From Rhizaria sp. SCN 62-66 (taxonomy: Eukaryota), in NCBI GenBank assembly GCA_001724265.1, contig MEDY01000220.1, forward strand, positions 1-64,000: a DNA stretch of 64,000 nt, given 5' to 3'. The number at the start of each line of letters is the position of its first letter. Position 1 is the stretch's first letter. The notes under the pieces are model-generated. The model was given only the letters and a program-made list of their open reading frames with translations, did not search any database and was not told where the DNA came from. This document shows positions 10,708 through 47,752 of the stretch, piece by piece. Both the position numbers and the translations under genes were made by a program.

Positions 10708-13401
10708 TTACTGCTTCTTGTCCTTCTTGTCCTTCTTCTCCTTCTTCTCCTTCCCCACCTTGCCCTTGCCCTTGCCACTTGCCGCCGCCGCCGCCGCAGC
10801 GGCCGCGGCGGCCGCAGCATTCTCGAAGCGCTCCTCGGCGATGCGGCGGGCCATCTCGTCCTGCAAGTTGCCGCTGCGGCCTATGCGGCCCAGTTGCACC
10901 GCCGCTGCCACCCCGCCCGCAGAGTCCGTCACCGCGGCGGCGACGGCGGCGGGCTCCGCGGCAGCGAGCTCGGTGGCCGCGGCGGGCGCAGCGCCAGCAG
11001 CACTGTCGCCGGTACCGTCGCCGCTGTGGTCTCCGTCGCTGACTTCGCCGGGCGCGACTGCGCGCGTGTCGCCGTAGTTGTACCCGTCGCCACCCACCAT
11101 CAGCGCCTTGCCGCCCGTCTTCTTCACCGACGTGGCCGCACCCGCAGACGCAGCAGGCGCGGGCGCTGCGGTCGCAGGCGCAGCTGCAGCGCCAGTCTCA
11201 GCGGCTGTGAGTTCGAGCTGGAGCTGGCGGATGGCCGCGTCGGCCGCGGCGGCGTTCTCGATCTTGTCCCGCGCCGCCTCGGCCGCGCGCCCGCGCGCAA
11301 TGGCGCTGTGTGCGGCGGCGCGCGCTTGCTCGCGCTCGGCGCGCAGCGCGGCGTTCTTGCTCGCGGGCTTCGCGCGGGGCGGCTTCGCGGCGCCGGAGGC
11401 GGCGGCACCAGAGGCGTCGGCCGCAGCGACAGAGCCAGCGCCAGCACCAGCAGCCGCCGCAGTGTCATGAGAGGCGACTGCAGGGAGGCCTGCAGTGTTG
11501 CTGGCGATGGTGGCGTGCTCGGGGCGCACAGCGGCGATGATGCGGCCGAGCCCCTTGGTGGAACCGTCGCGGAAGAGGAACACCTCGCCGGGCCGCATCA
11601 GCTCGGGCTTGTTCATGAAGCGGATGCGCACGCGCGCCGTGTCGCCCGTGACGAGGCTGCTGCGGCCCTCCTCGAGCTGGTCGATGGCGGCCGCCTGCCG
11701 CACCGTGCCGCAGTGCACGACGGCCTGGTAGCAGGGCCGGATCGTCGTCGGGTGATGCAGGATCACGACGTCGGTGTCGTACGCCCACGCCGCCACCGGC
11801 GCCGCCGCCGGGTCCACCAGCACCATGCCGTGTGTCACAAAGCTCTTGCCCAGCTCCGCGGGCGCCGCCACGATCGCGACCCCGGTCTCGGCCGCCGCGG
11901 CCGCCGCAGCGCGCGCGCCGCCCGGCACAGGCTTGAGGGCGAGCGACACGGCGTCACCGGCGACGCCGACGGCAACGCGCACGCGCTTGCAGTGGATGCC
12001 GCGCACGGTCACCTCGATGAAGGCGCCACGCTTGTCGGGCCCCAGCAGCAGGCGCTGGTTCTGCGTGATCCGCCCCGCGGTGACGGTGCCCGAGACCACG
12101 AGTCCCACGCCAGAGACCTGGAAGCGCTCGTCGATGCGCAGCTCCGTCGGCGCCGCCAGCAGCGCAGCCGCCGCCGCGGTCGCCGACGCAGTCGTCGCAG
12201 CACCAGCAGCGTTGCCTTCAGTCGCAGCGCCAGCGGCAGTCGCGTCGCCCGCGCTGCCCGCGGCAGCGCCAGTGAGCGCGAGCGTGGACGCGGCCTCGAT
12301 GGCGGCGCAGCGCGGGGGCGCGAAGCGCGAGAGGTACTTCTGCAGCAGGTCGATGTGCTGGCCGGTGACGGACGACACGTAGAAGACGGGCGTGGCGCGG
12401 AACGTGGCGTCGGCGAGCACCTTGTCGACGTCGGCCTCAGAGCGCACCGTCACGGGCAGCTTGTTTGCCTGGCGCGACTTGAGCACGGCAGTGAGCTGCT
12501 CCTTAACCTCCTTAAGGTTGTTGTCGAACGCGCGGTCGATCTTGGTGACGACGACGCAGAGCGGGAGGTCGAGCGCGATGGCAATACCCAGGTGCTCACG
12601 CGTCATCTTGGTCACGCCCGCCTGTGCGTTGACGATCACCAGCGCGAGGTCGGGGAAGCAGCCAGTGAGGCCGGCCACCGTGGTCTTAAGGTAGCGCGCG
12701 TGCCCCGCCAGGTCGATGAACGTCACGATCTGGCGCGCCTTGGCCACGACCGCCTGCCAGGCCTTGGTCTTGGCCGCCGCCTTAGCCGCCGCGGCGACCG
12801 TGTTGAACACAGGCTTGCCCGCGGCGTCGAAACCGGTGATGTGGTGCGAGATCGCGCTCGTGCGCCCGTTGTCCAGCTCGTGCTTGTACTGCAGCACCTT
12901 GGCGCGCGCCGACCCGCGCGCGTTGTCGAGCGCGCCCGCAGTGAGCACGCCGATGAGCGTGGACTTGCCGGCGTCGACGTTGCCCACCACGGCCACGCGC
13001 ACGTCGCGCACGCCCGCACCCAGCGCGCTCGTCAGCGGCGCGCCCGTTGCAGCGTCAAAGAGACCCGCAGTCGAGCCCGCGGTCGGCGCAGCGGTAGCGG
13101 ACGCAGAGGCAGCGGCCGCGCTCTTGATGTTGGTGTGGGTGTTGTTCATCGCAGCAGTGATTACGGCGCTAACAGAGGCGTTGGTCACGTTAGAGATCGC
13201 GTTGGCAGCGCCGGCGTTGGTGTTAGCTGCCGAGAGCGTGGGAGCGACGTTCTCGTTGGCAGTCTCGCTGTCGCTGCCGTTGTCTGCGTGCGCGTGAGCG
13301 TCGACCGCAGGAGTCGAGGTGTTGGTGTTGGTGTGTGAGTTGTTGTTGGCAAGCGCCGAGCGCTAGGTGTGCGCGTCGTCGGTAGCTATGCGGTTCATCA
13401 T
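10708..13401 (-). CDS. GTPBP1/GTPBP2-family translational GTPase, ~897 aa if the TAG at 13365-13363 is sense (otherwise starts near 13149); ends TAA
   Basis: VAVVGNVDAGKSTL, LDNARGSAR, HELDNGRTSAIS, TFIDLAGHARYLKTT, VVVTKID, EF-Tu-like domains II/III (ILHHPTTI...QAVVHCGTVRQAA). An upstream ATGATG at 13401 is in frame across one TAG. Confidence 0.92.
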
Positions 13402-14060: not shown

Positions 14061-17000
14061 TTACATGTAGTAGTCTGGCACGGAGGGGGGCTCCTCACTG
14101 CGCTCTGTGTCGTTACCAACCCCATTGCTGCCAGCATTGCCGTAGCGCGAGGTGGACAGGACACTCGCGTTGTTCTCATATCGTACCCTGCCGGTGATCT
14201 CACCCTCAGACACGCCGCTGCCGGTGTACATCGAGTTCTCGGCCCACCGGCCGGCCGGACGTCGCCCCTGAGCGGCGTTGTTAGAGTTGCCGTAGTTGTA
14301 GTTGTTGTTGTAGTTGTTCGTGGAGCCGGAGCTCGAGGCCGAGGGGGACGGCACGGCCCACATGCCGCCTAGCCCCTGCCCCGACCCCTGCCTCTGGTGA
14401 TAGTGCTGCTGCTGCTGCGGCTGCTGCGGCTGTGGCGGCATCGCGCTCACGTTGTTGCCACCGCCGTAGTAGCTGTTGCTGGCGTCTGCGTAGCTCTCGT
14501 CCCCGTACGTCAGCCCGCGCGCGTGTCCGCCGCTGTGGTCGACGCGGCCCGACAGCTCACCCTCGGAGCGCGGCGTGGCCTGACGCGAGCGGCCCACGAA
14601 ACGGCCCACGTAGCGCCCCGTCGTGGGGGAGATGCGGCCCGAGACCTCGCCCTCGGAGCGCGGGGTGAAGCCGCCCGGGACGCCGCCGTTGTTCCAGTCT
14701 CTGTCTCTGTCACCGTAGCCGCCACCCGCGCCCGTGGCGCTGCCGCGGACGCGTTGGCCGCGGCCGCGGTGCGCCATCGGCGCTGACGTGAGATCGATGT
14801 AGCTGTCGTTGGCCCCGGCACCGTAGCCGTCCTCGTTGTCGCCGTCCTCGTACTCGTTGCCGTCGCCGTCGAGGCGCGCGCGCGAGTGCTGCCTGCGGCG
14901 CCGCGCGGGCCCCACGCCGCCGCGGTCGCCACTGCGAGGCGGCGTGCGCGGCGCAGGCATAGCGAAGCCGGCCGCGCGCATGGCGGCCACAGTGACGCTG
15001 TCGAGGCTGGGTGCTGAAGTCACGCTGCCCGTGCCCACGCTGTCGACGTCACTGTCGCCGCCACGACCGTGGCCGGGGCCGCGCTTGCGCTGGTGCTTGT
15101 ACCCAGGGCTGAGCGCGAGGCCGAACATGTCGGGCGCGGCGGCGCGCAGCGCGGCGGCCTCGTCCGCGGGCAGCTCGAGGAACGGGTGCGTGCTGTCGTC
15201 GGGCGCGAAGATGCGCGGGAACCCGTTGCGGTCCACGAACACCTCGCCCTCGGACAGGTCCAGGTCCAGCGGCACCGAGTTTGTCGTGCGGGACGCGGTC
15301 GACTCGTCGCCGGACGCAGAGCCCAGTCTCCCGAGTCCGCGCACGCCGGTCGCAGAGAGCCAGCGGGCGCTGCCCGCGCCGGCGGGGCCGACTGCGTCGC
15401 TCTGCCCCGCGGCGTCGGCGACGACCGTGGTGTCTGTATCGCTGTCGCCGGACCCCGTGGCCCGCGCCGCGCGTCGCTGCCGCGCCGTGATCTTGGCGCC
15501 CGGGGAGAGGAGCTTGCGGCGCTCGGCCAGCGACGCGCGCAGCACAGCGAGCTCCTCCTCGAGGCGCGCCACGGCCTCTTGCTGCGCGGCGCTGGCGGCG
15601 GCGGACTGCGCCTCGAGCTGCGCGCGCAGAGCCTCCATCTCGGCGCTTTTGTCGGCCAGCGCCTGCGCCTGCTTGCCGAACTCGGCGCTCAGGGCCTCGC
15701 GCACAACCTCGGCCGTGGCGCGCGCAGCCGCGCCCGGAGACTGCGGCTGCTGCGCAGCGGCGTCGGCGCGGGCAGCGGCCAGGTGCGCGAGCGCGGCGCG
15801 GAGGTCGTCCTGCACCGACTTAAGCTCTGCGGCCGCCGCGGCCGTCTCGCGCCCGTGCTGCGCCATCGCGGCCGTGACAGTGTCGGCCACCACGGCCTGC
15901 AGCTGCGCCGCGCGCGCGGCCTCGGCCTCCTCGGAAGCCGTCAGCGCGGACCGCGGCACCGTGACGTTGCTGCTGGTGCTGCTACCGGAGAGCACGCGCG
16001 CGGCGTCCTCGACGAGGCTGCGGTTACGCTGCTCGTCCTCCTCCTGGCTGCGGCGCGCGCGCTCGGCCTCTGCGAGCGCGAGCACAGCCTGCCACTCCTG
16101 GTCGACCGCGCTCTCGCCGTCGACGACCGCGGAGCGCGAGACGTACGCCGCCAGCTCCGCGTCCGACAGCCGCGCCAGCGCTTCCGGGGACAGCATGCCC
16201 AGGCGCGACACCGCGGAGCCGAAGCCCAGCCCGGCCGCGCCAACGGCCGCCATCGAAATGTTGCCCGCGCCGCCCGTGAGCGAGTTGTTGGCGTCGAGCC
16301 CCAGGCCGAGCCCCGCGAGCGCCATCGAGCGGTCCACAGCGCGGCGCAGCGCACTCGCACTGTCGTCGTCGCCGTTGCCGTTGCTGCCGTTGCGGCGGGC
16401 GTCGTCGAGCAGGCCCTGGAGCGAGGCGACGAGCGTGTTGGCCTCGCGCGTGGCGGCCGCGCCGGGCCCGTGCGCGCGTGCGGCGGCGGCGGCGTCGCGG
16501 CGCGCCACGTCGAGCACGGCCTGCAGCACCTCGGCCGTGCGCGGCGTGACGTTGGCGACCGAGCTGCCGTCGCTGAGTCCCGAGGCGTCGCTGCCGTCCG
16601 CGTCCGAGCTCGTGCTTGTGTCCAGCATAGACGCATCCAGCCCCTTGCCCTTGCCCTTGACGCCCAGTCCGGCGAGCGCGCGCGCGAGGGCGCCGTCCTT
16701 GCCGCCGCTCTTGCCATGGCCGCGACCGTGGTCCTTGCCGTGGCGGCCGTTGCGCGCAAGCGTGCGGTTGTGCGAGCAGTCGCCGCAGAGCGAGTCGTCC
16801 GAGTCGGACGCGAAGGACCGCGCGGTCGAGTCGCCGCTGTTGCTGCCGCTGCTATCGGCGCTGTCGCGTGAGAGCTCGCAGCTGCAGTCCGCGCACACGC
16901 GGCGCGCACGCGTGCAGTTCGCACAGGCGTCGTCGCCGCCGCACTCGCGGCAGCTGCAGTCCGCCGCGCTCGCGGCCTTGCTGCCCGGGGCGACCGTGAG

Positions 17001-20000
17001 CGCGGTGCCCGCGGCGGCGTTGACGGGGGCGGGCCCGTCGATGTCGACTTCGGCGTCGAAGGCCTGGGGCGCGAACTGGCGCGCGTACGGGTGGTAGAGC
17101 GCGGTGAGCTGCGCCAGCAGCGCGGGGTTCGTCTGTCCCAGCGCCGCCAGCGACGCGGCCGTAGGCACAGCGCCGCGGCCGCCGCTGGAGCTCGCGGCCG
17201 CAGCGCCGGGCGCCATTGCGGCAGCGAGTGCGGCCAGAGCACCGCCGTCAGTGCCGTTGCCGCTGCCGTTGCTGTCGCCACTGCTGTCGCCGTTGCCGTT
17301 GGCGCGGGCCGTGACCGCGGTCTGCAGCGTCTCGAGCAGCACGCGCAGGTTGTGGTCCGCGAGACTGGGTCCCGGTGCGGGCGCGGTCACGATCACGGGC
17401 CCGTGCGCCCCGGCGGGGCGACGCAGGGCCAGCACGGGCTCTGTCGTCGTCCAGCCGTCGGAGTCCGCGGCGGCGGCAGGCAGCGTCACCGCGCCCGTCT
17501 CGGCGTCGACCGTCGCCTTGGCCACGCGCGAGGGCAGTACTGTGCCGTTGCTGCCAGAGCTGCGGGCCGGGGGTACGGAGGCAGAGAGAGACTTATTGAT
17601 GCCCGTCACACCGGCGTTCTTGCCCGCGGTGCCGATGACGCCGCCGCGCACGGTGGGCCGCGTCACACTCTTGCCCAGCCGGTCGCTGTTGGCGTTGTTA
17701 CTGCGCGCGTTGGCCGCGATCGCGGCGCGGCGGTCGGCCGTGGCGCCCGCCTCGGCGACGGCGGCCGCAGCGGAAGCGGGCGGCGCGGGCGCCGGGAAGG
17801 CCAGCGCGGGCGGCATCGACGGCAGATTGTACATGGGCTGAATCGGGAGGATCTGGGAGAAAGACGCCGACGCGGCGTACTTGCCGTTGGCGCCCACACG
17901 CGCACCGGCCTTGGCGCCCGCTTTGCGCACAGCCGGGCCAGCGTTGCTAGCCGCAGCACTGGGCTTGGCGCCGGCGGTCCGGGCGCTGGCGAGGGCGGCC
18001 CCGCGCTCTGCGGCGCCCGCGGCCCGGCGCGCGAGCGAGATGCCGGCCCCCGCGGCGCCGGAGTCGTAGGCCACGGCGCGCGCGCGGGCCTCCTCCTTCT
18101 CGAGCAGCAGCGCGGGGTCACGGCACAGCTGCTGCGTGCGCCGCAGCACCTGCTCGCGCATGCGCGCCAGGCGCCGCGCGTCGTCGGCCGCCGTCGCAAG
18201 CGCGCTCGTCTCGGGATCCAGCAGCGGATCCAGACCGAGCGGACCCACGCGACCGCCAACCACGGCCGCGCTGGCGTTCGCAGCAGCAGGCGGGGCAAGC
18301 TCATTTGAGGCGTTCTGAGGCGGCAGAGAGGAGGCCAAACCAGCCTGTTGCTGTGGGTGCTGAGCTGTGCGGTCAATCTTGGGTCCGCTGAGCGAGGGCT
18401 TGGTCACGAGCGCCTCGGAGACGGCCTGCTCAACGGCGCGCGCGGTCGCAATGCCCACAGCAGCACCCATCGCATCCCCGCCAGCGCCCGTGCCAGCGCT
18501 GATAGCGGGCGCGCTGGCGTTAGCCGCCGCCGTTGACGCGGCCGCAGTCGCGCTCGTGGTGGCGCGGTTAATGCGCTTGAGCGCGCTGGCGGCGGCGTCG
18601 GCGACGACTGCGCCGATGGCCTCGTCCCTGCGCCGCGCCCGCACGTCGGCGCCGTGCTGCGCCACGATGGCGTCAGCCTGGGCCGCCGCATGCGCGCGTG
18701 CCTCGGTGATCTCGGCCTCGAGCTCGGCCTCCTCCTCGGCGTCCTCGGCGCCCTGCGCCGCGCCGCCCAGCGTGCGGAAGGCCGAGTCGACCGCGGCCTG
18801 CGATGCGAGCTCCCCGCGTGCCAGCTCGCGGCCCAGCGCGGCCAACACGCGCACGCGCTCCTGCGCCGCGTCGTAGTCGAACCCCGTCACCTTGGACCGG
18901 AACGCATTGGCCGATTGCACCGACTGCGGCGGCCGCGCGAAGCGCTGCGGCTCGCGCGTCGCCGCGAGGTAGCGCTCCAGGTCCTTGACGGCCTCAGCGC
19001 CCGACGAGTGGCTGCCGCGCTGCGCGGGGAGCGCAAAGGCCGCCTCCCACAGGTCCACGGTGCTGCGTTCTTCTGCCGCGGCCGCGTCGCCGTAGCCCGC
19101 GTTGCCCAGGGAACCCGTGGGACCGGTGAGCTCGGCGCCGCGGGCGGAGGACGACGAGGACGGGGCGCCGAGCCCGGCCACGGTGGGCGCCGCCGCGCTG
19201 CTGGCAGGGCCATTGCCAGCCTTGTAGGCCGTGGCAGAGCGCTTGGAGAGTGCCCGCTTCGGGTTCGAGGGGCCGATGACGCCGCCCACAGTCACCTTCT
19301 TCCCGTTCGCACCGGTGCTAGCACCAGTCGCAGGCGCGGTCGCGGTCACAGGCGAGCTTGCGCTGGCCTTGTCACTGCTGCTGCTGCTGCTGCTGCTGCT
19401 GCTCGCGTACGTGTTGGTGTTGGTGGGCAGGACGGAGCGACCGCCGCCGCCAAGGCCGCTGTGCGCGCGCAGAATAGACTTGACACCGCCACCGCCACCA
19501 TCGCCGTTCACAGTAGCGTGGGCGTGAGCGTACGCGTCGGGGTTGGGGTTCGGGGCGCCATTGCCCGCGCTACTGCCGCCGTAGTAGTACGCACCCTGCG
19601 CACCGGAGCTACCGCTGCCGATGCTGCTATTGGTGCTGGGGACGCCGGTGTAGTGCTGCGTCTTGAGCGCACGCTGCTCCGCCTCCGAGGCCGAGAGCAC
19701 GTGGAGGTCGCCTCGGTCGACGTCGCGCCGACCGGTGTCGCGGCGGCCAGAGTCGCCACCAGAGGACGGGGCGCTGCCGCTGCTGCTGCTGCTGTAGTCG
19801 GCAGGGTGACTGGGAGCAGCGTTGTATTGACCGTGGGCAGGGTGACCGTGAGCAGGGTGACTGTGGGCAGGCTGGGGCACGTGGGGAATCGTGCTGGCGG
19901 TAACGCCATGAAATGGCATGTTGCTCATATGATGAGCGTGCATGTGGCTACCAGCAGTCGCGTTGCCGCTGTGAGCGTTGCTGTTGCTGCTGTTGGCCGC

Positions 20001-21656
20001 GAGCGGGTGCGAGACAGGTGCGGGAACACCGCCAGCGCTGACGTGAGCATTAGCAGCAGCAGCAGCGGCAACATTAATGTTCTGGTTGGTGTTATTGTTG
20101 TTCGCGGCAACCCACGGCAGCGACGACTTGCGCCCTGTGTTGACACTGCTAGCCGCGCCCGCACTGCTCGCGTCCTGCGTGTTATCAACAATGCCGTTGC
20201 TGTTGCTGTTGCTGTTGCCCCTGTTGATGATGTTGTTGTTGTTGCCTGCCGCGCTCTTGATGCCCATGCGGCCCTCGATGCGCGCGACGCGGCGGCCGTC
20301 CTCGTCGCGCTCGCTGGCGCGCATGCGCTCGCGCAGCTGCCGCTCCAGGCGGTCCAGCCGCGAGCCCAGCCCCTGCTCCAAGGCATCGGACTCGGACTCG
20401 CCGTACGTTTGGCCGTGGGCGGCGGCGAGGTGACCGTGGGCCGCGGATTGACTGTGGGCAGAGGCGGAGCCGCTGTAGGCGGCAGTGGCTGCGGCCAGGC
20501 GGGCGTTGGCCGCGGCGAGCGCGTCGTCGGCCTCAGCGTGGCTGCGGCCAGCTTGAGTCGCCGCAGCAACAGCAGACATCGGATGCGAGTTGCTAGAGAC
20601 CAAGGGCTAGGCGGCGTCGAAGTTAAGCCGCGCCTCGAGCGCCGCGTAGACGGACGACGCGCGCACAGCAGCAGCGCCCGTCGCACTGCCAGCCTGCGCA
20701 CCTGCGTTGTAGCTAACAGTCGCATTGCCGATGTTGCTGTTGTTGCGGGTGTCGTTGTTGGCAAGGAAGCGCTCGACGGCGGCAGCGGCGCGCGCCGAGG
20801 CAGCAGCGGTCGCGGACTCAATACCACTGGCATGCGCCTGAGCGCCCGCCCTACTTACGCTGGAGTTAGAGCTAGAGCTCGAGCTAGAGAGGGTGGGGCC
20901 GTGGCCGTGACCGTGGCCGCTGTGTCCGTTACTGTGGCTGGAGGGCGTGAAGGCGTGGTCGTTGCCGCCCATAGCGGGGCCATACGCGCGCAGCGGCGTC
21001 CCCATAGACACGCGATTGTTGTTGCTGCTACTCGCGGTAAAGATGCTATTATTTGCACTGAAGCTGCTGTTATCGTGAGCATTATTGGCGTTAGCATCGG
21101 CATTGACGCTTTGAGCGAGCGCGGCGGCGCCCGCGTGCACGGAGCCGGCGAAAGGCGTGCGGAGCCACTCCATCTCCCTGCCAATGCGCTCGGCGTGGCG
21201 CTCGCGGCCCAGCGCGGCGAGCGCGCGCTCGACGCTATCCGCGGCCGGGACCGTGGCGGCGTCGATAGACCGCACGGCCGAGAGCGTGTCGGCACGGCCG
21301 GCGCGCGTCAGCAGCGACTCGATCTCGGAGGAGCTGGCGCGGTCGATGGAGCTGAGCGTCTGGCGCAGCTCAGGCACGTGGCGCCACGGCAGCGGCATGC
21401 GCTCGGCGGCGGGCAGCCCCGGGAAGTCGCGCAGCCCGGCCACGTTCTCGGGGTCCAGGATCGTCGCCGCGCAGACAGACTCCAGGGCCGTTGCCAGCTT
21501 GCCGCCGGAGAGCACAGCCGCGCGCGCCGCGGGCGCCGCGGAGGGCTCCAGCGATATCACCACGGGGCGGCGGTGCGCGGGGTGCTCGGACTCGGGGCGC
21601 CGTGCGGGCGCGCGGGAGGGCTTGGGATCGAAGGCTGCCACGGTTTGGCGTGACAT
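14061..21656 (-). CDS. Very large low-complexity/coiled-coil protein of unknown function, ~2530 aa, with in-frame TAG at 20609-20607; ends TAA
   Basis: Track ORFs 20607..21704 and 14061..20603 share a frame and are separated only by TAG-CCC. GC3 codon bias is uniform on both sides. Coiled-coil segments, a Cys cluster and C-terminal SEGE repeats are present. The 5' end is uncertain (possible upstream exon; AG acceptor near 21664). Confidence 0.75.
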
Positions 21657-22388
21657 TTCGTGCCTGTAGATTGGAAGGTATATGGGCAATATACAGAGGT
21701 GCAATTTAAGTTGTGAGTATTTGCGACATGTTTACTTAAGACTCTAGTACGTAAATTCAAATAACGATCATTTGAAGGAACACGAGACGGATGTAGATTA
21801 ACTTGACTTTGTGACCGTTGGGGACATCTCTGCTTCAGGAGCGGTTCCCAAAAATTCGCCGACCACGACCGCTCCAACTCGGTCGATGTGGACCTAGATT
21901 CCGTCACGAAAAGAGCTCTTTACAGCGGCAAATATCTCTATTAAATACGACGTTATACGTGCTATTTTTTCAAGCATGAGTATATTTGGAGGCGTATCCG
22001 GACCGCTGTTTACGGATACTGTCAGGGTTTAATCTGCTTTGAAGTCGAAAACTTGACGACGTCGTCCTCCCTTGCTCCTTTCACATCTCACCCCTCTACC
22101 TCCCCCACGCTTGCACCCGTAGTCTCCGTTCGACGCCCTTTTTGTGTAGTACACACAAATAGCAGCGTTTTATTCCTTGTATCCGCGCACAAACCCATCC
22201 CGGCGTTGCTGTGCTCCTCCCCCGAAGCCGGCTTCGACAGCAAGCTCCCCAGCTCTCTCTCGAACGCGCCCGCCTTCGCCCCCGCTCGCTCGCGCCTGTA
22301 ACGCCAGCGTTGCTTCCTTCTGACACCGCCCCCTCGCCCGGCCTTAGCTTTACGCTCAGACCCGGCGCCTGCTCCCTGGGCTGTCTCT

Positions 22389-23404
22389 ATGGCCGACTCT
22401 GACATCCTGACCCGCTTTGAAGACGAGGCTCAGTCATCGATCAACAACCTTAAGACACTCCTCACTGCCATCGCCTCCGCCCGGTACGTCCATATCAGCA
22501 TCACTACAGCAAACCGATGAACATTTTCTACACGTCCACCCTGCATTGTGCCAGCTTGCGCTCTTTTACGCCTCAACGTCTCAAGTGCTTTTCTCTCACT
22601 GTCTCGCATATTGCACTTCGTTTATTTGTTACTGAACGGCTCACAGCTCCCCCCGCGAGGCGCAGACCCACCTCGACAAGGCCGACGCGTCTGTGGTGCC
22701 CCTGGGCGACGGCGTCTTCCGCGACTTCAAGCGCGAGCAGCGACACATCGCGCACGAGTCCAAGCCCGCCGCCACACGCCGCCTCAAGGCCCTGCAGCAG
22801 GACTGGGACCAGCAGAAGGCGATGCTCGGCGACTACAAGCGCCAGTACCTTACCGGCGGCGCCCCGGCCGGGGCCGCTATGTCCCCCGTCGAGCGCGCTG
22901 AGTGGACCGACCAGCGCCAGCGCCTGCTCCAGGCGCGCGAGATCCAGGTGCGTGCACTCGCTAAATATGCTAAAAAGCGGAATATATGTTTGGCTATTCA
23001 TCATGAGCGGCATAGTGGGTATTGCGCTGTTCTTGATGCGTATACGAAACTTTGTCCTGATTGCTTCTTATCAACATCTCACCTTGCATCACATTGTTTC
23101 GTTTCTTCTTTGCTTCGACTCTTCACAGGGCGGCAATGCGCAGTCGCTGGCAATGACGCAGCGCACGATCGAGGACGCGGCGATGATTGGCTCCAACACG
23201 AGCGTGAAGCTGGAGCACCAGACGGAGCAGATGGAGAACGTGATCGGCACGCTGCATGAGACCAACTCGGTGCTGGACAAGTCTGCCAAGCTGCTGCGCC
23301 GCATGCGCACGCGCCTCGTCACCAACAAGCTCATGACCTTCATCATCATCCTCGTCGAGCTTGCCATCGTCGCGCTCATCATCTACATCAAGTTCTACAC
23401 CTAA
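22389..23404 (+). CDS. VTI1: Qb-SNARE, Vti1-like, ~223 aa; exons 22389-22483, 22647-22947, 23129-23404; ends TAA
   Basis: Helical N-terminus, QRQRLL, SNARE motif IGSNTSVKLEHQTEQM...SAKLLRRMRTRLVTNK and C-terminal TM anchor LMTFIIILVELAIVALIIYIKF. Introns are in frame. Confidence 0.8.
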
Positions 23405-28797: not shown

Positions 28798-31700
28798 TCA
28801 CACAGCGTCACTGTTGCTGTTGCTGTTTACACCGTGATTACTCCAGATGCAGTTGTCATCGCTGCAAGAAGCGCAGCGGCCGCCGCTGCGGCTACTGCTC
28901 CGACTGCTGCCTCTGCTGTTAGTGTCGCTGCTGCAACAGCTACTGCGTACGCTGCCGACAGACTCAACCTCCGCCATGTCGCTGTGCACGCCGCTGTGGC
29001 CGTCGCTGTCGCTCTTGCTCCCCGGGCCACTGCGCCCGCTGCCGCCGCCGCCACTGCTCGCCGGCGGCGGCCGCCACGCCTGCCCCAGGCGCCAGCCGGG
29101 GCTCTGGACGCCGCGGACCACTGCCGCGGTCTGTACAAACTGCCAGAAGGAGCACACTGCGAAGCGGTACTCGGACCCGGACCACTTCTTGCAGCCGCAC
29201 TCCGCGCACCGCGCCGGCGGGTCCGCCTCGACGGCGTCGGCCACCGCCGCCGCGTACGTGTTGGTCGCGGGAGACAGGCAGCTGAGCGGGCGGCCGGGCG
29301 ACGAGCCAATGCCCCAGCCAGTGCGGGAGCAGCTGCTCGCGCCAGGCACAGGCACTGTAACAGCCACAGTTGCAGTTGCGGGGGGAGTTCTTGTGACATT
29401 CACAGGGGCCGTCGCGGTGGCGCCATGATGCAGCTGCTCCTGTTGTTGCTGGCTTCTAGTCGTTGAGTTATTTGCTAAAGCGAGAGGAGTCTCGTAGCCC
29501 TCCGTTTCGCTCATGTTAATGCTACAGTTGCTGTTGCTATTCTTGCTGAAGCATTTGCTGTCACAATCACGAGCGGGACAGCTCGGCTTGACATCACCAC
29601 TGCCACTCTTGTTAGCGTCAATGCAAACACTTGTACTGCGCGGGCGCTCACCCTCGCCGTGACTCCCCGCACGCGCACGCGCAACAGCCACACACGCAAC
29701 AGTCGCACATGTTCCGCCTAAGCCACTGTTCGCCTCAGTGCTCTTGATGTGTGATGGCTTCACTGGAACAACAAATGCACTCGGCGTGTACAAGTACCTT
29801 GCCAGCAACGGCGGGCCCTCAAGTGACTGCGAGCTGTAGGGTGACTGCAACGCCTGTGACTCTGAGCTGTGAGGGTGCAGTGAGCGGCCGTGGCGGTGGA
29901 TCTCGCGCCAAAACGTATCTGCCTTGGCGTTTGCTTCTTTGCTTAAGATAATGCGTCGACAGCAGCGGCAGTACAGCGGCGGGCGCAAATCTGAGGGTGA
30001 TCGCTGTGTACACAGGGTTAACGACGAGGACGAATGGGGATGATCTTGGGTGGCTTTGGAGTCACAGTTAGTGGCATTGCTTGAACTGTGCTTGGAGAGC
30101 TCGATGGCACAGTGGAGCCCCCACCTCACATCGTTCTCGTCGACAACGTCAGTGTCGCAGCACGACATAACGCCAGCTGTCACCGCCGCAACATCAGCGT
30201 GATGGAACAAGCTCGCGCGCGCGTGGCAGAATCCGGGCTTGCGTCGCGTATTGCGCGTCAGCATCCACGTGTACTGCGACCACATGCTGTGCACCCACTC
30301 CAGAAGCTCTTGAAGAGCTTTCTGCGCTCTGAGCTTGGCAGTGCTGGCGGCAGAAAGAGAGCTTGAGCTCACACAATTATTACTGTGCGCGCTCAGAGTG
30401 ATGCCATCAAGAGTGTTCAAAAAGCGCAGCGCGGCGTGTAAGTCAAACGGGGAGAATCTCTTCGCCAGCGCCGCCAGCGTTGGGTCAGCCGTCCCTTTGG
30501 CAGGGCCCCTAAGCTCAATCGGACCAGCAATACAAGTTGCGCTTATAGCAGAATTTGCGCTGCTGGTGTTGACGTTGCCGTGCGACCACTGCGGGGAGAG
30601 AGCCAGCGCCAGTGGTCGAGGCGGCAACAACGGTACCGGGGGCTGGTGACCGCGGGCACTGTGGTCGTACTCGTAAGCCCAGCGTGTGTTGAGATGCAGA
30701 GAGCTTTGCTCATCGTTGCGCAGCAGGCTTGCCTCAGAGGTACCCGCTTCTCTTTCAGAGGTTTCGTCGCTGCTGCTTTCACTGTGTGAAACACGGAGCT
30801 CCTGCTGGTGCTGATGCTTTTGCGACTTCCTACTTACAACTGCCTGCTGTAAGAGTGTCTTCATTTGTGCCAAAGTAGGCGTCTTTTGTGCTGGTGCGCG
30901 GTCCGACACACCAAGCGACGGGACATAGGCAGGTTTCCAAAGCCGAGACTGAGCCTGCGCTCTCGGTGACAATGCGAAAGCTCCGCCTACAACATCAGTA
31001 TCGCCGCTATAGCTACTATTGAAAACCGAAATCGCGGTCTCGGTAAACGCATCTTGCTGTTTGAGTAGCTGCTGTTGCTGCTGTACAAGCTGCTGCTGCT
31101 GAAGTTGGTATAGTTGCGCAGATGTAAGTCCACTCGACACACGCGCGCGGTCACTGCTTGCACTGCGGTTTTGACCCCAAATTTGCAAGAGCTGTTCGTG
31201 CGGATCTGTAGCGCCTAGTGCACTATTGCGGCCGTCACTGCTACTCACACGCAGAGTCTTAGTACTTGCGTGACTGTTGCTGTACTCAGCGTTGCTGTTT
31301 CGAGATTGCGCTACCATATGATGGCTATAGCCAATGCGGATGTTGGGCGTGCCGTTAGAACCGCAGGGCACGCTATCGCTGGCGACAACCCTATTGCCTT
31401 CACCGCTGCTGTTACTGCTATCACTGCTGCAATATCCGCTCCGCGGCGCGTTTGAAGACGAGGCTGCTCCGATGCTAAGTCCTCCAAACGGTGCAACCGG
31501 CGACGGAAGAAGCGGCGGTCCATCGGCTGTGGTGCCAGAGGCTGCTGATACCTCAGCGGTCGATGCGCTGTGGAGCTCAATTGCATTGCTTTCCAATACC
31601 TCGGCCTGCTGTTGGTGAGGCGCCAACCGCGCCTTTTGCAAGCGTAACCGGAGTGCCGCAACAGCGGGCCCTAAAATCGATGTGGCTGGCTGAACCGGTG

Positions 31701-34700
31701 AGTTTATAGCGTTGCCATTATCCTTGCTGTTATCCGTAACATTTAGGCACGAGCTCGCGTCACGAGCAGACACGTCAGAACTGACTTCAGTCGGAAGATT
31801 GCTTTCATCAGTTGCACGCTTGTTCCTACGACCACTGTCGCGGTCGTGCTCAAGGTTGTCATGCACAAGCTCTCTCTCTTGTTCTGTGCGTTGCTCACGA
31901 TTGCGATTGTACCCTTGTCGACGCTCATTGCGCCTGCGGTCACTGTGCACGCGACCACTTTGCCTTTGGTCACCGTGCCCGCGATCAGCGGCTGTAGTTG
32001 CGAGAATATCCTCGGACAAACACTCACCCGAAAGTGCTGACGAGTTAGGGATTGTTTCCCACGGCAGAGGCACCAGAAGCAGAGAGCTAGTTGTGCTGCC
32101 CCCAGAGGTCGGCGATGACTGCGGTGCGCAGCCATTGGCAACTGCGGAGTCGGATGCCGCCTTATTACTTGCTGCACTGACAATGACATCGTGCACTGCA
32201 GTCGGCAGATTCAACGAAAGAGATGCAACAAGACCCGGCGCTCCACCATCACCAGAGTGGGAAATGTCTACACAATGGGTAACAGACGACGTGGCTACGT
32301 GGCCCAGACTGGTTCCTCCACTTACATGATTGTGCTGCGGACACGTTGATGCGTTCAAGGCAGAAGTTGTACTTTCATGAGCGGGCCGAATATTGTTGTT
32401 TGTAGGACTTTGCTGCTGCTCTTGCTGTTGCGTCTGCTGAGCCCGCAGCTCCGGCGATGTTACACGAACGGCGTAATTATGCGGTGGGTGCGCCCGTCCT
32501 GCACGCGCTTTGCTTTTGCGAACAGGTACACCAGTGGCTCGATCACTGTTCAGACTTGACACACTAAACCGTGACGTTTGAATAGCAGCTCGTACAATAA
32601 CGAACCCCGAGTTAGTGGAGCTAGCGTGATCTAGACTGTGACACGGGTTTGCCTTATCGCTAACATTTGCAACGGCATTGGAGTTTAACGGCAGTACCAT
32701 AGTTGCCGTTGCGATACCAGCAGCTTTGTCGGCGATAGGCACTGAGCTATTACTGTTTGTAATGTTGTTATGCACGCTAGCGCTGCGCGAGCGCGAACGC
32801 GCATGCACAGCTACAGGAGTGGCCGCACGGCGCGGCACTGCAAAGGACCCATGTCCACTACCAATAGTGGATGCGCCCTCATCGCCGTCACCAATTGGAA
32901 CCGAGAGTGCCGGCGCACTGCGGTCTCTCATTTCGAATGATGAGAGCTTAGACTCTGACGAAATCGTGAACACATACGGTGCAAAACGCACACGCTTGCC
33001 ACTTGCCGTTGTTGCAACGTTTGCGACAGAAAGGCTATGTGCCGATGACAAGTCGCTGTGACCGCTACCTGTATTGTTGTTTGCGACTGTGTTGAGAACG
33101 GGGAGCCCGGGAAAGTGTTGCGATGGTGCAGCTAAACTGGCGGGAGTAAAAAAGCGTCCTTGCTGATAGTGATGCTGCGGATAAGGGGAATGCGCCTGCT
33201 GTTGATACTGAGAGCTAGCAAAACTGCTGTTGTAGCGAGGCGTGCGCAGTAGAGACTGAAGTGGGCGCGAGGTGCTGTTGTGATAGCCAAGTGCAAACAT
33301 TGATGCTGTCGGTGCCAATGCCGTCGGTGATACAGAAAGCGCCAGAGCGCTATTTACGTGGGCGGTCTCTGTACCAGCTTCCTCTGTAGTGGTCGCAGTC
33401 AAAACATCTTCCGAGACGCCTAACGCCAGTGACGAGCTCGCAACAATCGGGGCCGTGTTGCACAGCCGCAGCGCTGTAAGGGGCTTTACGGCCATCGCAG
33501 CAGCAGTGATGGTCTCTGCCATCAGTTGCTGTGTTACGACTGAAGCTATCCGAGCCGGGATGGAGTTGGCCGAAACCGCGCACTCTACTTGGCAGTCACC
33601 AGTTGCTGTGTCAACAAGAGGAGCAGACCCGTCAACATATCTGAAACTGCTCTTGTGATGAGGGTTGCAAGATGTTGAGCTCAGCGCTAGTTCTGCTGTC
33701 GGTGTTACGTCTGCAAGCGTAATCACGTTTTCTGTTGCGGTGCTTGCGGAATCTGCAATTGCGTTATCATTCTTCGCTTGGGTTGATAGCAGGGCAGTAA
33801 CTGTGTCAGAAGCTTCATCTAAGAAGGAGAGGAGCGACGTCTTAGTGACATTAGTATTGACAGCATCGGCATCTGGCAGCATGGTGGCGTCATTTGTAGT
33901 CTCGCTAGGCTTTCTACCGGACGTGTGTAATGAGAGTAGTCCGCAAACGTTGCTTGGACTCATGACGCTGTCGGACAAGGCAGCAACATCCTGAGCTCGC
34001 AGTGCGCACTTAACATCACATAATCTGCTCACGCCAATGCCCGAGTCCTCGGTTAGCTGGAGCCCCGCGGAACGACGCAACGTTGAATCACTTGGAGGAG
34101 CTGGGGTGTCAGAATTGTTCTGTGCCGAGTTAACGTCACCAACAAGACTGTCACAGCAAGCTTCAGTAGCGGCAAATTTGTTGCTGCACACTGATGTAGT
34201 CTTGGGACTTCTGGCGCTAATCCCAGGAGCAACTGCGTCAGAAGTTATATTGGAGCAATCACGGTCAGTGTTAAAGCTGTTCAAACCCAGGCTCGACTCT
34301 TGTTCAGGCACACACTTATCGTGAGCGACGCACTTGGGTGCTTGATCTTTAGTGCCACATGGTTCATCGATAATGTCTGTGCTCTTGATGTTGCCATCCC
34401 CGCGCCTGTTCGAGCTGTTGACGACAGCGCAACCGTCACGGATGTTGTTGCTGATACTATTTCCGAACATTCGTTGCTCCCACGCTTGCTGCTTTAGCCC
34501 GCGTTCCACAAGGGAGATATAACTGCCAACCTGTACTGGTGCCGCCAGTGGTCTTGTCGAAAACGCACCCACGGGGTTTGTTGTTGTAGCAGCTACATGA
34601 GGCGTAGTAGCAAGCGGTTGCAACAAGCTGTAACTCGCTTTACCTTGCTGCGCAGCATGAGCATCTGAAACACTATAACATGCTACAACACTGTCAACGC

Positions 34701-36726
34701 CTGTCGCTAACGTTACCGTGTTGTTTGAGGGCAGGCTCGCAGCAGACCGGTTACGATTATGCCGTGTAGCCACTAACGCTGCTTTTGTTACCACACCATC
34801 GACAGTGAGCGAGCTACTGTTAAGCACCCCTTTGCCGTTTGGAAGGGCAAGTCCAAATGTGTTGTTGTTACTGCTACTTGAGCTGTTAGAAGCAAATGAG
34901 CTCACACCCCCAGAGCTCGCATTAAAATGAAACTCGTTGCGGAGATTCGTGCAATCATCACAATTGCATCTGTTACCATCAACAGGAACGCCTTGAAGGC
35001 GTAACGCATGCTGCCGACGTTGCTGCTCACAGCCACTTATCGCAACCGATGACTGCTCACTGTCGCCTGAACTTGTCTGGCGACTATTGTCCCATGCATT
35101 GCTAGATTGTTGACATAGGGTGGCAGCGGTATCACTAACATTAGAGCTGTTTGTTGCCACAATCTGTGTTGAGCAATCGCTCGTACTATTGATAACCCCA
35201 ATGAGCACATGCACTGTTGCAATCAACGCGGCGCGACAGCACTGATTCGCAAGGCCACACGCAACGCTAACAATATACAACGGAATTTGTGCTGTGCGGT
35301 AAAGAACGGCAGCTGAAGAAGGGATTAACGCGGCAACACTGCGTGGCACAGCAAAGTGTGCGATGCGAGAAACACTTGGCGTGCTGAGATAGGCGGCAAA
35401 TGTGGGAATCGAAAACTGTGCCGTCACATCAACACTAGTTGCGCTTACGCTCGCGCTAAGATAGCTGTGATGACTGCGAGGCTGGGTTTGAGGTGCAACG
35501 TTGCTCACTACACTAAATGGAGCAGAGTTGCTCACTGTGCTTGTTGCAGCAGTCGATGAAGCGCAGCTAGAGTCCGTCTATGAAGCTTCGCTGCGTGTGC
35601 GCGAGTGCGTGCGCGAGCGAAAGTGCGAGTGAGCGTGGTTTAGATGCGACAATACGCGTGAGCTATGACCATCTGTCACAGATGTGGCTCTTCGTGGTGC
35701 ATCTTCACAGGCGCTATGCGTGCCTGTGTCGCGACGAGAAGACGTGCGATTGCAAGCATTGTCTTTACTACCGCCCACACGTAAATCACTACTTTTCCCT
35801 CGTTGCGCGTTGAGGTTCCGCTACTGAAACTGTGTTTTTGCGCTTAATCCATGCGTAACTGTTGCAGCAAGGAAGGGTTGCCATAGTGTATGTGCTGCGG
35901 TGCTGAGCGCAAACGAGGCGGTCGCAGCCAGCGGCTCTAATGCCAAGTACGAAAACGACGAGAGCGCACGCGGTAGCGGCAGCGGAGGAAATGACGCAAC
36001 CGACGACTCGGAGTTTGACGACCCAGCTGAGTGAGACTGTGCCGCCAAGTCGCTGTGGCTATGCGCAGCGTTGGCGTGGCTGTCACTGCCCCCACCGCAG
36101 CTACCTCTGCGCACGCCCAGTGTACGCGTTGCTGCTGCATACGGCAACGCCGCAGAGTGAGACTGCGAGCTGCGGCGCGACTGTGGGCGCGATAGCGACG
36201 CTGGCAGCGAGCTCTGCAGCAGTGACTGTGAGCACGTATTGTTGACATCAGTCGCTAACATCTCGCAAGACGCTTGCGCACGGCCGCTACTAATCAACGC
36301 GTGGTTAGTTGCGCCGATGTTGCTGCGATTAGGAGTAGTGTCGGCGTTGGCGTTTGTGCAAAGACGTGCGATATAAAATACGATCCATTTGACTGTGAGC
36401 ACAGTGACGAGCCAACAGAGCTGACACAAACCGGACAGAAACACAATCACGGTCCGAAGCCAGCCAGAAGCACGTCTACTCGGTAGGCTGTGCGGTAAAT
36501 GCGTTATGCTTGTGTTTGTGCCACCGGGATGCGAAATCGGGTCGTGCGTCAAACTTGGGGACGATGCAGAAGGCAACACTTGGTCAGCGTTCGCTTGAGC
36601 GTTATGCCTGTCGGAGAGCAGTTGAGATGACACATCCGAGCGCGAGTAGTACGGCTAGGATGCAGATGTTGGAACGGAGTATAACGGTGCGCCGCTGAGA
36701 AAGGCTGCCGAGGTGAAACCTGGCAT
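28798..36726 (-). CDS. Giant Ser/Ala-rich protein of unknown function, ~2640 aa, with three in-frame TAGs (36657-36655, 35823-35821, 35580-35578); ends TGA
   Basis: From ATG 36726 a single frame runs through track ORFs 35821..36633, 35578..35778 and 28798..35535 with only TAG interruptions (linkers checked by hand). Contains a hydrophobic segment near the N-terminus, a KRVRF motif and C-terminal Cys pairs. Confidence 0.7.
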
Positions 36727-37396
36727 TTGGAGAAGAAGGCTGTTGCGGCGACTGTGGGGGTGATGAGTGGCCAAGGTCAAGGCCGCAGAAAACGAGCCCG
36801 GAGGCACTAGAAGTGAATTTCAAAGAGAAAATAGACAGTATAAAACAATTTTAGCGTTTGTTTTCAGTTGAAGCCCATGAGCGATTGTTGATCAAATCTC
36901 GATTCCTATCCAGGTTTCAAGAGATGATGTAAGTATGGGTCGAGCGGAGAGACTCCTTGTGAGTCAGAGACTTCGAATGAGATAATGGGATGGTAACAAG
37001 TGAAAGAGCAATTATAATTTCTGGATTATGCATTTGCAACATAATCTTACAATTACGTAGTTTGTAGGCTCTTGGTACGAAAATATGACAGTAGAATAAC
37101 CTCTGCAAAATCAGATCTCCTTCCAAGACATTACAACCACAAGTCGGTTTCTTGACTTGAAGCTTTGTCTCCAGCGAGCTTCAAGTTAATATATCAAAAC
37201 ATGTCGCGGTATATTGTAGTTTCCAAATCTTAACAATGTATTTTCAAACTAGTTTAAATTATTTCACCTTCATATCTCTTTAAGACAAACATACACACAC
37301 AAATTATAATCTCTTGACCATCAGCTTTAGCTCACATACACCTAATCTGGATCAAAACACGGAGTACAACACAAGCATCAAGTATCACGCGAGTCT

Positions 37397-45445: not shown

Positions 45446-47752
45446 ATGAGTGCCCCTCACCGAGGCCCTCCTGGCGGTCATGCCCGGCCTTTCACTGCCG
45501 CCGGGCGATCCCGCGAGGACGCTATCTCTCTTGACAGCGACAGCGAGGACGGCGAGGACGGTCTCCAGGCGCAGGCCCGGCCGCTCGGCGACAGCCAACG
45601 GGCCGCTCTGACCCCTGCGGTGCCCAGCCGCGACCAGTCGCACCAGGGCGGCTACAGCAACAGCAGCAGCCAGACGCAAGGCCAGCGCACCACGGCAGCC
45701 CGTACTGTGCCGCAGTTGAGTGACATCGATAATGACGACAATGACGATATATGCGAGTTGCCGCTTGACGACTTCGTCAGGAAGCCAATCCCAGTCCGCG
45801 TACGTGCTTGTTACATCAATAACTCATCCATATATGCATGTTTTCAAATTAAATCTTAGGACACGGTATTAAGACACGTCAAATGTATGATACTTAGATG
45901 AAATTGCCACACCACTTTGTCATGCCATTATAATTCCTGTTCGCACTCATGCATCCTTCTTGTCCCGGTCCTCTTGCGCGCTCTCTCTCAGCGTGAAGCC
46001 CTCGTCGGCCCCCTCAGCTACGAGGTCGCCCCGCGCACATACGCACAGTCGCGCCCGAAGCGCCCCTCAGACCCCGCCGCGCTCGCCCACGACGGCCGGG
46101 ACTACCTGCAGCAGCAGCGGCCCGCGCAGCCGCGGACGTCATCCAACTCTAACGCCGGCGCCGGCGGCGGCAACATCGGCGCTGCGGCGGGGTACGGCAG
46201 CGGCGCGGGGCTGAACGCGGCGCTGGCGGCCGCACTGGGCGTCGGCGACAGCTGGGAAAGCCACCCGACGCTGCACTCGCGAGGCGCACACGGAGAGTAC
46301 ACAGACTACAGTGATCAGACCTACAAAGGCGGCGGCGGCGGCGGTGGCAGGGTACCCAGTCAGAAGGAGCTGTGGGAGCAGCACGAGCGCGAGAAGAGCG
46401 AGCGCGAACAGTACTACGCGCGTTTGTATCAGCAGCGGCAGCAACAGCAGCAGCCGCAGCAACCACAACAGCATCAACGACAGTCGCCAGCAAAGCAGCA
46501 TTTGCAGCCACTGCCACAGCAACAACAACCAAGGCAGACGCAACAACCTAAACCTGAGCAACTGCCGCAGCCTCACGAAGCCAAGACTCCGCTTAGCCAG
46601 AGCCAGACGCCGCTGCCAACCAGCTCGAGTCAGGACTTCGCGCCGAGCGCGCTGTCGAAAGAGCCGTCGCTGTCGTTCACGGCCACGTCTTTATCGTCGC
46701 TGAAGCTCCAGCCCATCCCTCTGGACACCGTCGACTCTTGCAACGACTCTTGGGGTGCTCACAGTACTGCAACGTCTATCCGCACAGCCGTCTCAGGCGA
46801 CGGCGCTAACTTGAACAGCACTGCCAGCAGCTCCACCGCCACCGCCGCGGGCCCGGGCCTCGGCCTCGGCCTCTCGCTCAGCCGCGTCGACACCGGCGCC
46901 GACAGCTCCACCCAGAGTCACCCCCTCGGTCACCCTTCCGGTCACGGCGCCGCGCCAGCGCGCCAGTACTGGCCGCCGCAGTGGCTGCTGGCGCCGGAAC
47001 CAGCCGCCCCCGCCCAGGCCCCGACCGCCAACTCAAGCTCTCTGACGACCAAGGCCGCGAAGAAGCCCCCGTTGGGCTCTATAGGCACACGCCTTGCCAC
47101 AGCCGGTGACACACATGCATCTACGACTGTGTTTGCAAGCGCGCCTACGATAGCGCCTGCGACGGCGAGCGTGCTGGTCATGCTACCCAACGGCTCGCGT
47201 GTGGTCCGACGCTTCCCCCTCGCACTGCCGTGCTGCGCGCTGTACCGCTGGGCGCAGCTCGAGGCGCGCCGCGCGGCCGCCGCGGCGCGCGCCAAGCGGG
47301 AGGCGCTGCGCACGGCGCGGAACCCTTTCTTGCCAGAGACACACGCGCTGCAGCCTGCCGTGATGGCGCGCTCGAGGGCCGCGACGCCGCCCAGCCACAT
47401 TCTCCAGTACCAGAGTCAGAGTCATCGTCACGCGACGTCGCCGACTGGAGCGTCTGCTGCGGCACAGTCGTCGCAGACGCAGTACTTGGACCGGAGCTAC
47501 TTAGACCTGTCCGAGGAGCCGGCGCCGTTCTTACTGTGGACACGTGTGGCGCCACGGAAGCAAATTCCCGCGCCTGTGGCCGTGGCTGCGGCGGCCGACG
47601 GCGTCGGCGGCGAGGGCGAGTGCTTTTGCTGCGATGTCGCGATGAGCGGCGACGCTTCGGGGGCGACTGCCGGCGCGTGTCCCGCCGGCCACAGCACCAT
47701 TGGGTAGATGAGGCTCAATGGGAGCACGCTGGTTGCCGAGGAAGCGGACTGA
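45446..47752 (+). CDS. UBX-domain p97/Cdc48 adaptor, ~704 aa; exons 45446-45799 and 45992-47752, reading through TAG 47705-47707 to TGA
   Basis: VRKPIPVR|REALV motif. UBX strands SVLVMLPNGSRVVRRF...LYRWA...FLLWTRVAPRKQI...STIG*MRLNGSTLVAEE; the last UBX helix/strand lies after the TAG. Confidence 0.78.

Follow-up and report, generated by a model that had tools for sequence, protein, structure and literature searches.

A probable variant nuclear code in a GC-rich eukaryote, with UAG most likely read as glutamate and UAA and UGA kept as stops

Here we report what is probably a real and unreported variant of the nuclear code, in a eukaryotic genome (G000) of 35 Mb and 714 contigs that is GC-rich and bears GT-AG introns. 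A tRNA with a CUA anticodon, changes in the release factor eRF1, TAG codons within exons and the usage of stop codons together make it very probable that UAG is a sense codon, and we consider it likely that its meaning, whether decoding is full or partial, is glutamate. Near-complete decoding of UAG as Glu, with UAA and UGA as stops, is our preferred reading and is held with somewhat less assurance. The first-pass annotation of a single stretch of this genome (64,000 nucleotides, hereafter the window) had argued that true reassignment fits three successive in-frame TAGs in one gene better than three leaky readthrough events. Support for that argument comes from the rest of the genome and not from the window gene itself: besides the tRNA, there is an altered eRF1 with a TAG of its own, TAGs lie within conserved domains, and TAG is missing as a terminator. 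The window gene alone is weak evidence, because it lacks a non-self homologue, its upstream coding score is about zero and its TAGs are clustered.

In the mechanism that we favour, a copy of tRNA-Glu would have changed its anticodon to CUA, reading UAG and not UAA, and would have kept an acceptor stem of the Glu type, by which glutamyl-tRNA synthetase could still charge it. Through changes in its stop pocket (T32S, G57S and T58K), eRF1 would have lost most of its grip on UAG, which would then have been purged from gene ends and become a rare sense codon served by a single tRNA gene; the efficiency with which this tRNA decodes UAG is one that we infer. That most UAGs would have been born by point mutation, at sites under weak constraint, suggests a young reassignment. 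Under such a code the four fragments of the window gene would form one protein of 2642 residues.

The window gene and its three in-frame TAGs

The gene and its parts lie at the following positions of the window:

28798..36726, minus strand: low-complexity orphan gene ending at TGA, of 2642 codons should UAG be sense
36655..36657, minus strand: in-frame TAG 1, residue 24
36355..36453, minus strand: most hydrophobic stretch, residues 92-124, between TAG 1 and TAG 2
35821..35823, minus strand: in-frame TAG 2, residue 302
35578..35580, minus strand: in-frame TAG 3, residue 383
28798..35577, minus strand: TAG-free part of 2259 codons, with its first ATG at 34470

Counted from ATG 36726 to the TGA at 28800-28798, the minus-strand frame runs for 2642 codons with three TAGs and 0 TAA or TGA, in keeping with the original proposal that three TAGs (at 36657, 35823 and 35580) join four fragments into one gene of about 2640 amino acids. 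The frame is already open from 36819, and the statement that some 400 codons contain three TAGs and no TAA or TGA also stands, with 414 codons over 36819-35578 and 0 TAA+TGA. Two details needed correction: the open stretch after the third TAG, put at about 2245 codons, counts 2259, and the claimed lack of an early ATG in the downstream fragments is true after TAG 3 (first ATG at 34470, 370 codons in) and not of fragment 2, which has an ATG at 36261. Assembly error as the origin of the three TAGs could be ruled out, as contigs from run X2, which belongs to a different study from the possible source, cover 32203-35902 and 35899-37367, all three TAGs included, with 0 letters different; overall, the window was compared with contigs from 4 of 13 listed sequencing runs. 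No RNA run was listed among those that share at least half of the window's sequence words, and the RNA-labelled runs X5 and X12 gave short contigs, none of them listed over the three TAGs and none with intron-type joints, a result that bears neither way.

A Pfam scan of the 2642-residue protein matched no family, and an Atlas search with its last 1000 residues gave no usable match. The orthologue alignment that had been proposed as a check produced, for residues 1-700, two self matches and one weak low-complexity match; residues 701-1642 were scanned for homology against Pfam alone. Standard-code gene callers, which split genes with sense UAG, filed fragment 2 and the TAG-free part as two proteins (P0249 and P0248). 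The Kyte-Doolittle maximum of the protein (2.16, 19-residue window) falls in residues 92-124, a possible membrane anchor.

It is likely that the gene encodes a single protein of 2642 amino acids, with translation presumably from ATG 36726, though this is less certain than the sense meaning of UAG because the gene is an orphan whose three TAGs are clustered in a weakly coding N-terminal part. A somewhat unlikely alternative, which concerns this gene alone and is compatible with other readings of UAG, is that the gene, whatever the code, is not one 2642-residue protein: translation would start below 35578, at a non-AUG codon or after an upstream exon is spliced in, and 36726-35578 would be a leader, an intron or a separate short gene. 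Consistent with such a start, all three TAGs fall in the first 383 codons and none in the next 2259 (3 TAG to 5 GAR upstream vs 0 to 74 downstream; Fisher p=6e-4), the number of TAGs over 36819-35578 is at neutral expectation (3 observed vs 3.7 in a first-order Markov simulation), the absolute coding-model score of the upstream 383 codons is about zero, there is no homologue to align, and the 30 nt before TAG 1 are pyrimidine-rich, like a splice acceptor. Against it, the same simulation expects 6.2 TAA+TGA where none occurs (P=0.002), and each of the five other frames contains 8-15. In this region the gene frame also outscores both remaining frames of its strand by 52-71 log units; of all six it is the best in fragment 2 under both coding models, and in fragment 3 it is the best under one model and nearly tied under the second. 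Furthermore, the amino-acid make-up of the upstream 383 codons, which include the hydrophobic segment, resembles that of the rest of the protein, and a start below 35578 would have to contend with the ATG-free 370 codons that follow TAG 3.

The removal of the TAG segments by introns, named by the first-pass annotation as an outcome that would overturn the gene model, was not borne out. All 18 windows across 36800-35001 were negative on an intron model that gave positive values (+0.03 to +0.25) for 15 of 15 known introns, the exon model of this comparison having been trained on the downstream part of the gene itself. The 100 nt upstream of TAG 1 score as exon-like and the DNA upstream of TAG 2 and of TAG 3 is not intron-like, so that introns do not seem to remove the three TAGs. 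The simplest reading is of an N-terminal part that is young or loosely constrained and would be kept open through selection against TAA and TGA only.

A tRNA with a CUA anticodon and an altered eRF1

Two features outside the window bear on the decoding of UAG:

G000:C84, locus L037 1489-1561, minus strand: tRNA with anticodon CUA, 58 bits on Rfam tRNA
G000:C63, locus L031 1594-1596, minus strand: in-frame TAG of the eRF1 gene, residue 111 of 441

The tRNA was one of 22 matches of an anticodon-to-T-loop pattern. It is present as a single copy, is followed by a T run, and shares its contig with kinase, kinesin and WD40 genes of the same genome. Among the genome's own tRNAs its best match is tRNA-Glu(CUC), at 47 of 73 positions ungapped (64%) and a score of 21.0, the next being 9.5 and the Gln tRNAs scoring -5.5 or lower. 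The TCCCA/TGGGA acceptor stem is common to the CUA tRNA and both Glu tRNAs, and a four-base variable loop is common to it and tRNA-Glu(CUC); we take the shared start of the acceptor stem and the four-base loop to be Glu identity features. On these grounds the tRNA would be derived from a tRNA-Glu and charged with glutamate; the genome encodes a GluRS on G000:C207. It stands as one gene vs 8 records of tRNA-Glu(CUC). The 40 pattern matches contained no UUA tRNA, in a type of scan that misses tRNAs with an anticodon-loop intron: ARAGORN, applied to 36 of them, returned two Pro tRNAs and a Thr tRNA, and of the remainder one gave nothing and three were Thr and Lys genes. A pyrrolysine tRNA was also considered and rejected, as the Pyl label given by ARAGORN derives from the anticodon alone and the molecule has an ordinary, Glu-like cloverleaf fold.

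The release factor domain PF03463 has three matches in the genome, which correspond to a single eRF1 and, in two pieces, a pelota-like gene. The eRF1 gene, whose GT-AG introns measure 134-292 nt, carries its TAG in an exon, where it aligns without gaps with human E107, a column occupied by E in 106, D in 10 and V in 1 of 117 homologues. A JGI contig, which may share the source sample, is identical at 1626 of 1626 positions, TAG included. Relative to the same 117 homologues, three substitutions fall in the stop-reading motifs, T32S, G57S and T58K; T32 and G57 are otherwise invariant (117/117) and T58 nearly so (116/117). The exception is P0004, a relative with 84% eRF1 identity that shares M34V and T58K and retains T32 and G57; its residue 107 is V. 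With T58K present and T32 and G57 intact, this protein may order the steps of change. A metagenome scan turned up no eRF1 DNA from a diverged relative. T32 is described as contacting the third stop base and T58-K63 as lining the codon (PMC4605324), and from such positions we suggest that eRF1 may have lost recognition of UAG. Site 107 is not strictly bound to E, because the closest relative has V there and E107A is described as viable in yeast (PMC4381064).

The gene is strongly biased in codon usage (GC3 0.90), with 26 GAG, 4 GAA and 1 TAG. Its only AAA, among 32 Lys codons, directly follows the TAG, a coincidence that was noticed after the fact. Since the gene of eRF1 itself needs UAG as sense, a simple reversion of the code would be blocked.

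TAG within genes, at gene ends and in its meaning

Further in-frame TAGs of the window were found in three genes:

20607..20609, minus strand: TAG at codon 375 of the 2556-codon frame 14061-21731, coding-like on both sides
13363..13365, minus strand: TAG in a GTP_EFTU-family GTPase gene (10708-13434), 12 codons past the first ATG
47705..47707, plus strand: TAG in a UBX-like gene (45902-47752), 15 codons before TGA, a candidate sense site

The first of these is covered by a contig of run X6 (20315-20776) that has one difference, elsewhere in the contig. In the UBX-like gene, Pfam matched only the first part of the UBX domain (E=0.016), and the tail presumably resembles the end of such domains.

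Across 657 kb, coding-like flanks on both sides were seen for 24 of 1099 TAGs, 4 of 1879 TGAs and 1 of 509 TAAs, the sole TAA sitting inside an intron of L060. Among 142 Pkinase matches 9 contained TAG as their only stop, 4 being splice acceptors and 5 exon TAGs. Eleven further TAG loci gave 3 exon sites (a kinase at its hinge, SUV3 and an SNF2 helicase) and 8 acceptor or intron sites, and 3 of 5 more held exon sites (a Ras-family GTPase and two UCH proteases). In TOR a TAG lies opposite Ser inside a gap-free HEAT alignment. A search for TOR homologues returned one protein. TAGs in myosin and kinesin genes, tried as sense codons, turned out to be splice acceptors. No stops were found inside the listed matches of AAA (22), ABC (20) and WD40 (149), and the DEAD family has 1 TAG in 43 matches, at a match edge. 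Isolated TAA or TGA stops turned up in a handful of matches to kinase, kinesin, Ras and HSP90 families, and all those inspected lay in introns. Several genes have 2-3 TAGs, namely the window gene, L063, L064 and L146.

Three other sets of frames with TAGs are recorded here as observations. L063, L064 and L065 are kinase-plus-repeat paralogues with one to three in-frame TAGs each, at differing positions. A 1659-codon frame (L140; G000:C4, plus strand, clustered TAGs at 2018-2045) has three TAGs 14-23 codons past the first ATG and another one a long way downstream, a pattern that resembles the window gene. The frame at L176 1-2085 (G000:C681) is chimeric, with a ubiquitin domain alongside a Peptidase_S74 chaperone domain and part of its length duplicated internally, and is possibly viral or mobile in origin; its two TAGs are both opposite Q in its own paralogues.

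The first stop after the coding core was TAA in 51, TGA in 38 and TAG in 2 of 91 cases, and at the 27 core ends without a splice-donor-like motif it was TAA in 15, TGA in 12 and TAG in 0; these counts cover about 0.66 Mb of the 35 Mb. The genes of the window end on TAA (7), TGA (4) and TAG (0 of 11). By these counts UAA and UGA remain terminators, with TAA the commonest, and UAG is not so used; no context-dependent UAA was seen. As a sense codon UAG is rare: 49 TAGs occur in 152,291 core codons, about a third of these TAGs looking like acceptors or leaders by eye, and its frequency is roughly 2-3 per 10,000 codons (about 0.02-0.03%). An apparent genome-wide excess toward the 5' end (25 of 49 in the first fifth) was discarded, as it consists mostly of acceptors and leaders by eye.

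With regard to meaning, Pfam bits summed over 11 domain sites, with 8 of the 20 residues tried, ranked E first (657.7), followed by Q (654.0), K (653.6), D (649.7), S (648.9), Y (640.5), L (639.0) and W (635.7), so that Ser stands 8.8 and Leu 18.7 bits below Glu. E alone is best at 4 of the 11 sites and tied with Q at one, and a single kinase site supplies 2.4 of the 3.7 bits by which it leads Q; protein alignments thus give a thin residue call. The two strongly conserved TAG columns, eRF1 107 and the kinase hinge, are Glu columns. The flanks of 48 hand-picked TAGs gave an E-Q score of 23.5, where reference sets score 79.5+-17.8 (E sites), -102.9+-35.8 (Q sites) and 47.1+-17.6 (random sites), and hence fit neither typical E nor typical Q sites and match random ones. 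Most TAGs would then go back to single mutations, for the most part of CAG, at loosely constrained positions that tolerate any sense meaning; it would therefore fall to the tRNA and the conserved sites to decide, and both point to Glu.

We regard as unlikely an ambiguous intermediate in which the Glu-type tRNA competes with an eRF1 that still partly reads UAG, each UAG giving either Glu or termination. In-frame UAGs would then be tolerated only when rare, and the UAG of eRF1 may set the level of eRF1 by feedback. The single tRNA-CUA gene beside 8 tRNA-Glu(CUC) records is compatible with this picture, as are the share of TAG in the Glu box (below 1%; 49 or fewer vs 5201 GAG), the mildness of the change T32S, and the strong codon bias of eRF1 with its lone AAA right after TAG. 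The base after the 48 TAGs (A9 C19 G11 T9) is a pyrimidine in 28, vs 19.3 expected from local codons (p=0.008), which would weaken termination, given the purine preference described at +4 (PMC4605324). This bias is, however, explained equally well by descent from CAG, and no shared readthrough motif follows the 48 TAGs, which have no fixed motif and a mild pyrimidine bias. Also against partial termination are the several genes with 2-3 TAGs and the near-absence of TAG from gene ends, which is expected only if TAG stops poorly. As to feedback, the probability of one TAG in eRF1 by chance is estimated at roughly 0.05-0.15. A specific form of this idea, marginally less probable again, is an early UAG=Glu code, in a GC-rich protist from a sparsely sampled lineage, in which tRNA-Glu(CUA) still competes with the modified eRF1 and the UAG within the stop-reading domain of eRF1 serves as an internal-stop feedback loop; if true, such a loop would both lock in and tune the reassignment.

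Glutamine as the meaning of UAG, through wobble by tRNA-Gln(CUG) or a Gln-charged tRNA-CUA, appears improbable to us. Q comes second in the Pfam sum, 3.7 bits behind, and comparison with paralogues from this genome puts TAG opposite Q at 4 of 8 sites (the others being T, W, D and K), two in the ubiquitin-S74 chimeric frame and two in the kinase/repeat family, one of which is D in another paralogue. The following base also resembles that of CAG (pyrimidine 0.62) and not that of GAG (0.42, p=0.015), and TAGs are seen inside CAG runs, in putative frames. However, Q opposite TAG would be expected in drifting paralogues under any sense meaning, since a transition turns CAG, an abundant codon, into TAG. 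The only CUA tRNA, moreover, resembles tRNA-Glu and not the Gln tRNAs of this genome, Glu is the residue of the two best-conserved sites, and the flanks lie 3.5 SD away from typical Gln sites.

The standard code, with the TAGs as assembly errors, pseudogenes or RNA-editing sites, is already largely refuted and very improbable: some TAG frames do resemble drifting paralogues (the kinase/repeat frames L063-L065 and the chimeric L176), but the letters are identical in contigs of another study and in the JGI eRF1 contig, the only eRF1 found carries a TAG, the internal-stop bias is confined to TAG, Trp (the product of A-to-I editing) scores worst in the Pfam sum, a cognate tRNA exists on a contig with kinase, kinesin and WD40 genes, and the lack of TAG at gene ends argues against such a code.

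Relation to known codes and context of the genome

Uncoupled meanings of UAG and UAA are described in a handful of eukaryotes, with UAG as Leu, Gln or Ser (PMC5304391, PMC11687900). These include the rhizarian exLh (Leu) and Iotanema spirale (Gln), the latter, where UAG alone is sense, being marked by T32G in eRF1 (PMC5304391), and also phyllopharyngean ciliates (Leu, Gln; Gln in two) and Scotinosphaera (Ser) (PMC11687900). In common with these systems as there described, UAG would be sense and UAA and UGA stops in the present genome, a CUA-anticodon tRNA is present (as in those systems where genomes exist), and T32 of eRF1 is changed, to G in Iotanema and to S here. Unlike them, Glu is the most likely meaning, the tRNA appears Glu-derived, eRF1 has the extra changes G57S and T58K, UAG is very rare and the genome is GC-rich; their Leu, Gln or Ser meaning is not supported here, Gln, at 3.7 bits below Glu, being the least firmly set aside.

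Glutamate is met in a second group of codes. In Oligohymenophorea sp. PL0344, UAA is Lys and UAG is Glu (PMC10553269), the latter through a tRNA-Sup(CUA) most similar to tRNA-Glu, which is the likeness to the present case. That account gives UAA as sense, UGA as the only stop, and 10 CUA and 12 UUA genes, whereas here TAA is the commonest stop, with one CUA gene and no UUA gene found; the 64% identity of the CUA tRNA to tRNA-Glu(CUC) is below the 69-93% reported there. UAR is Glu in peritrich ciliates and in Blastocrithidia, where UGA is Trp and UAA also a stop (PMC12153298, PMC11687900). As would be the case in the present genome, tRNA-Glu(CUA) is described there as arising from a duplicated tRNA-Glu, and the scarcity of reassigned codons in highly expressed genes may be counted as a further likeness. 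The differences are that in those lineages UAA and UAG are described as changing together, with UAG at 1.4-1.7% of codons and a tie to AT pressure, whereas here UAG is at about 0.02-0.03% in a GC-rich genome with no context-dependent UAA seen. The sense UAA of PL0344, Blastocrithidia and the peritrichs is likewise not seen here (1 of 509 TAAs, intronic; no UUA tRNA among the pattern matches). In the cited accounts, Glu is reported for UAG only where UAA is also sense (PMC5304391, PMC11687900, PMC10553269, PMC12153298), and a literature search of mostly open-access papers, taken without supplements, found no case of UAG=Glu with UAA as a stop.

The combination of tRNA, eRF1 and an apparently young codon distribution offers a test case for codon capture versus an ambiguous intermediate, and AT pressure cannot explain the change because the genome is GC-rich. 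Amber suppression in eukaryotic cells would benefit from an eRF1 that passes over UAG and still acts at UAA and UGA. Release factors whose own synthesis involves a stop codon have precedents: bacterial RF2 is made through a frameshift at an internal UGA. Plant eRF1-1 is described as an autoregulatory circuit of readthrough and NMD (PMC5397192). The present eRF1 would resemble both, as described, in that translation of a release-factor mRNA depends on passing a stop codon, and would differ in that the UAG is internal and in frame, at residue 111 of 441, and has a cognate tRNA; feedback here is hypothetical.

The genome has many kinases, kinesins and myosins, and the runs that hold most of the window are, where labelled, bioreactor and wastewater metagenomes. 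A very divergent 18S rRNA gene (G000:C706, L056 1501-5945) contains four matches to group I introns, and a His-Me finger homing endonuclease is encoded in the region of the first. Searches with eRF1 and HSP90 each found one close relative, at 84% and 88% identity (P0004 and P0125); neither Sainouroidea nor Heterolobosea, considered as possible lineages, gained support. Actin is fragmented in the genome. No polyubiquitin junction was found in the 6 of 23 ubiquitin matches inspected, and the divergent ubiquitin genes L174, L177 and L178 have Met-Ser ahead of the usual first Met and, in those followed to the end, a three-residue tail.

In the window, ATP-citrate lyase (5880-8897, minus strand) has both of its parts fused in one gene, and among the other genes are those for Rrp4, a V-SNARE, a RING ligase, MMADHC and a CH/WH2 coiled-coil protein. 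A contig of run X2 over the SNARE gene (23162-23368) has about 30 letter differences that mostly fall in steps of three, which suggests a second related organism or a paralogue in the sample. Elsewhere, G000:C34 has WD40 repeats near 14184-16400 within an open frame of 10,115 codons.
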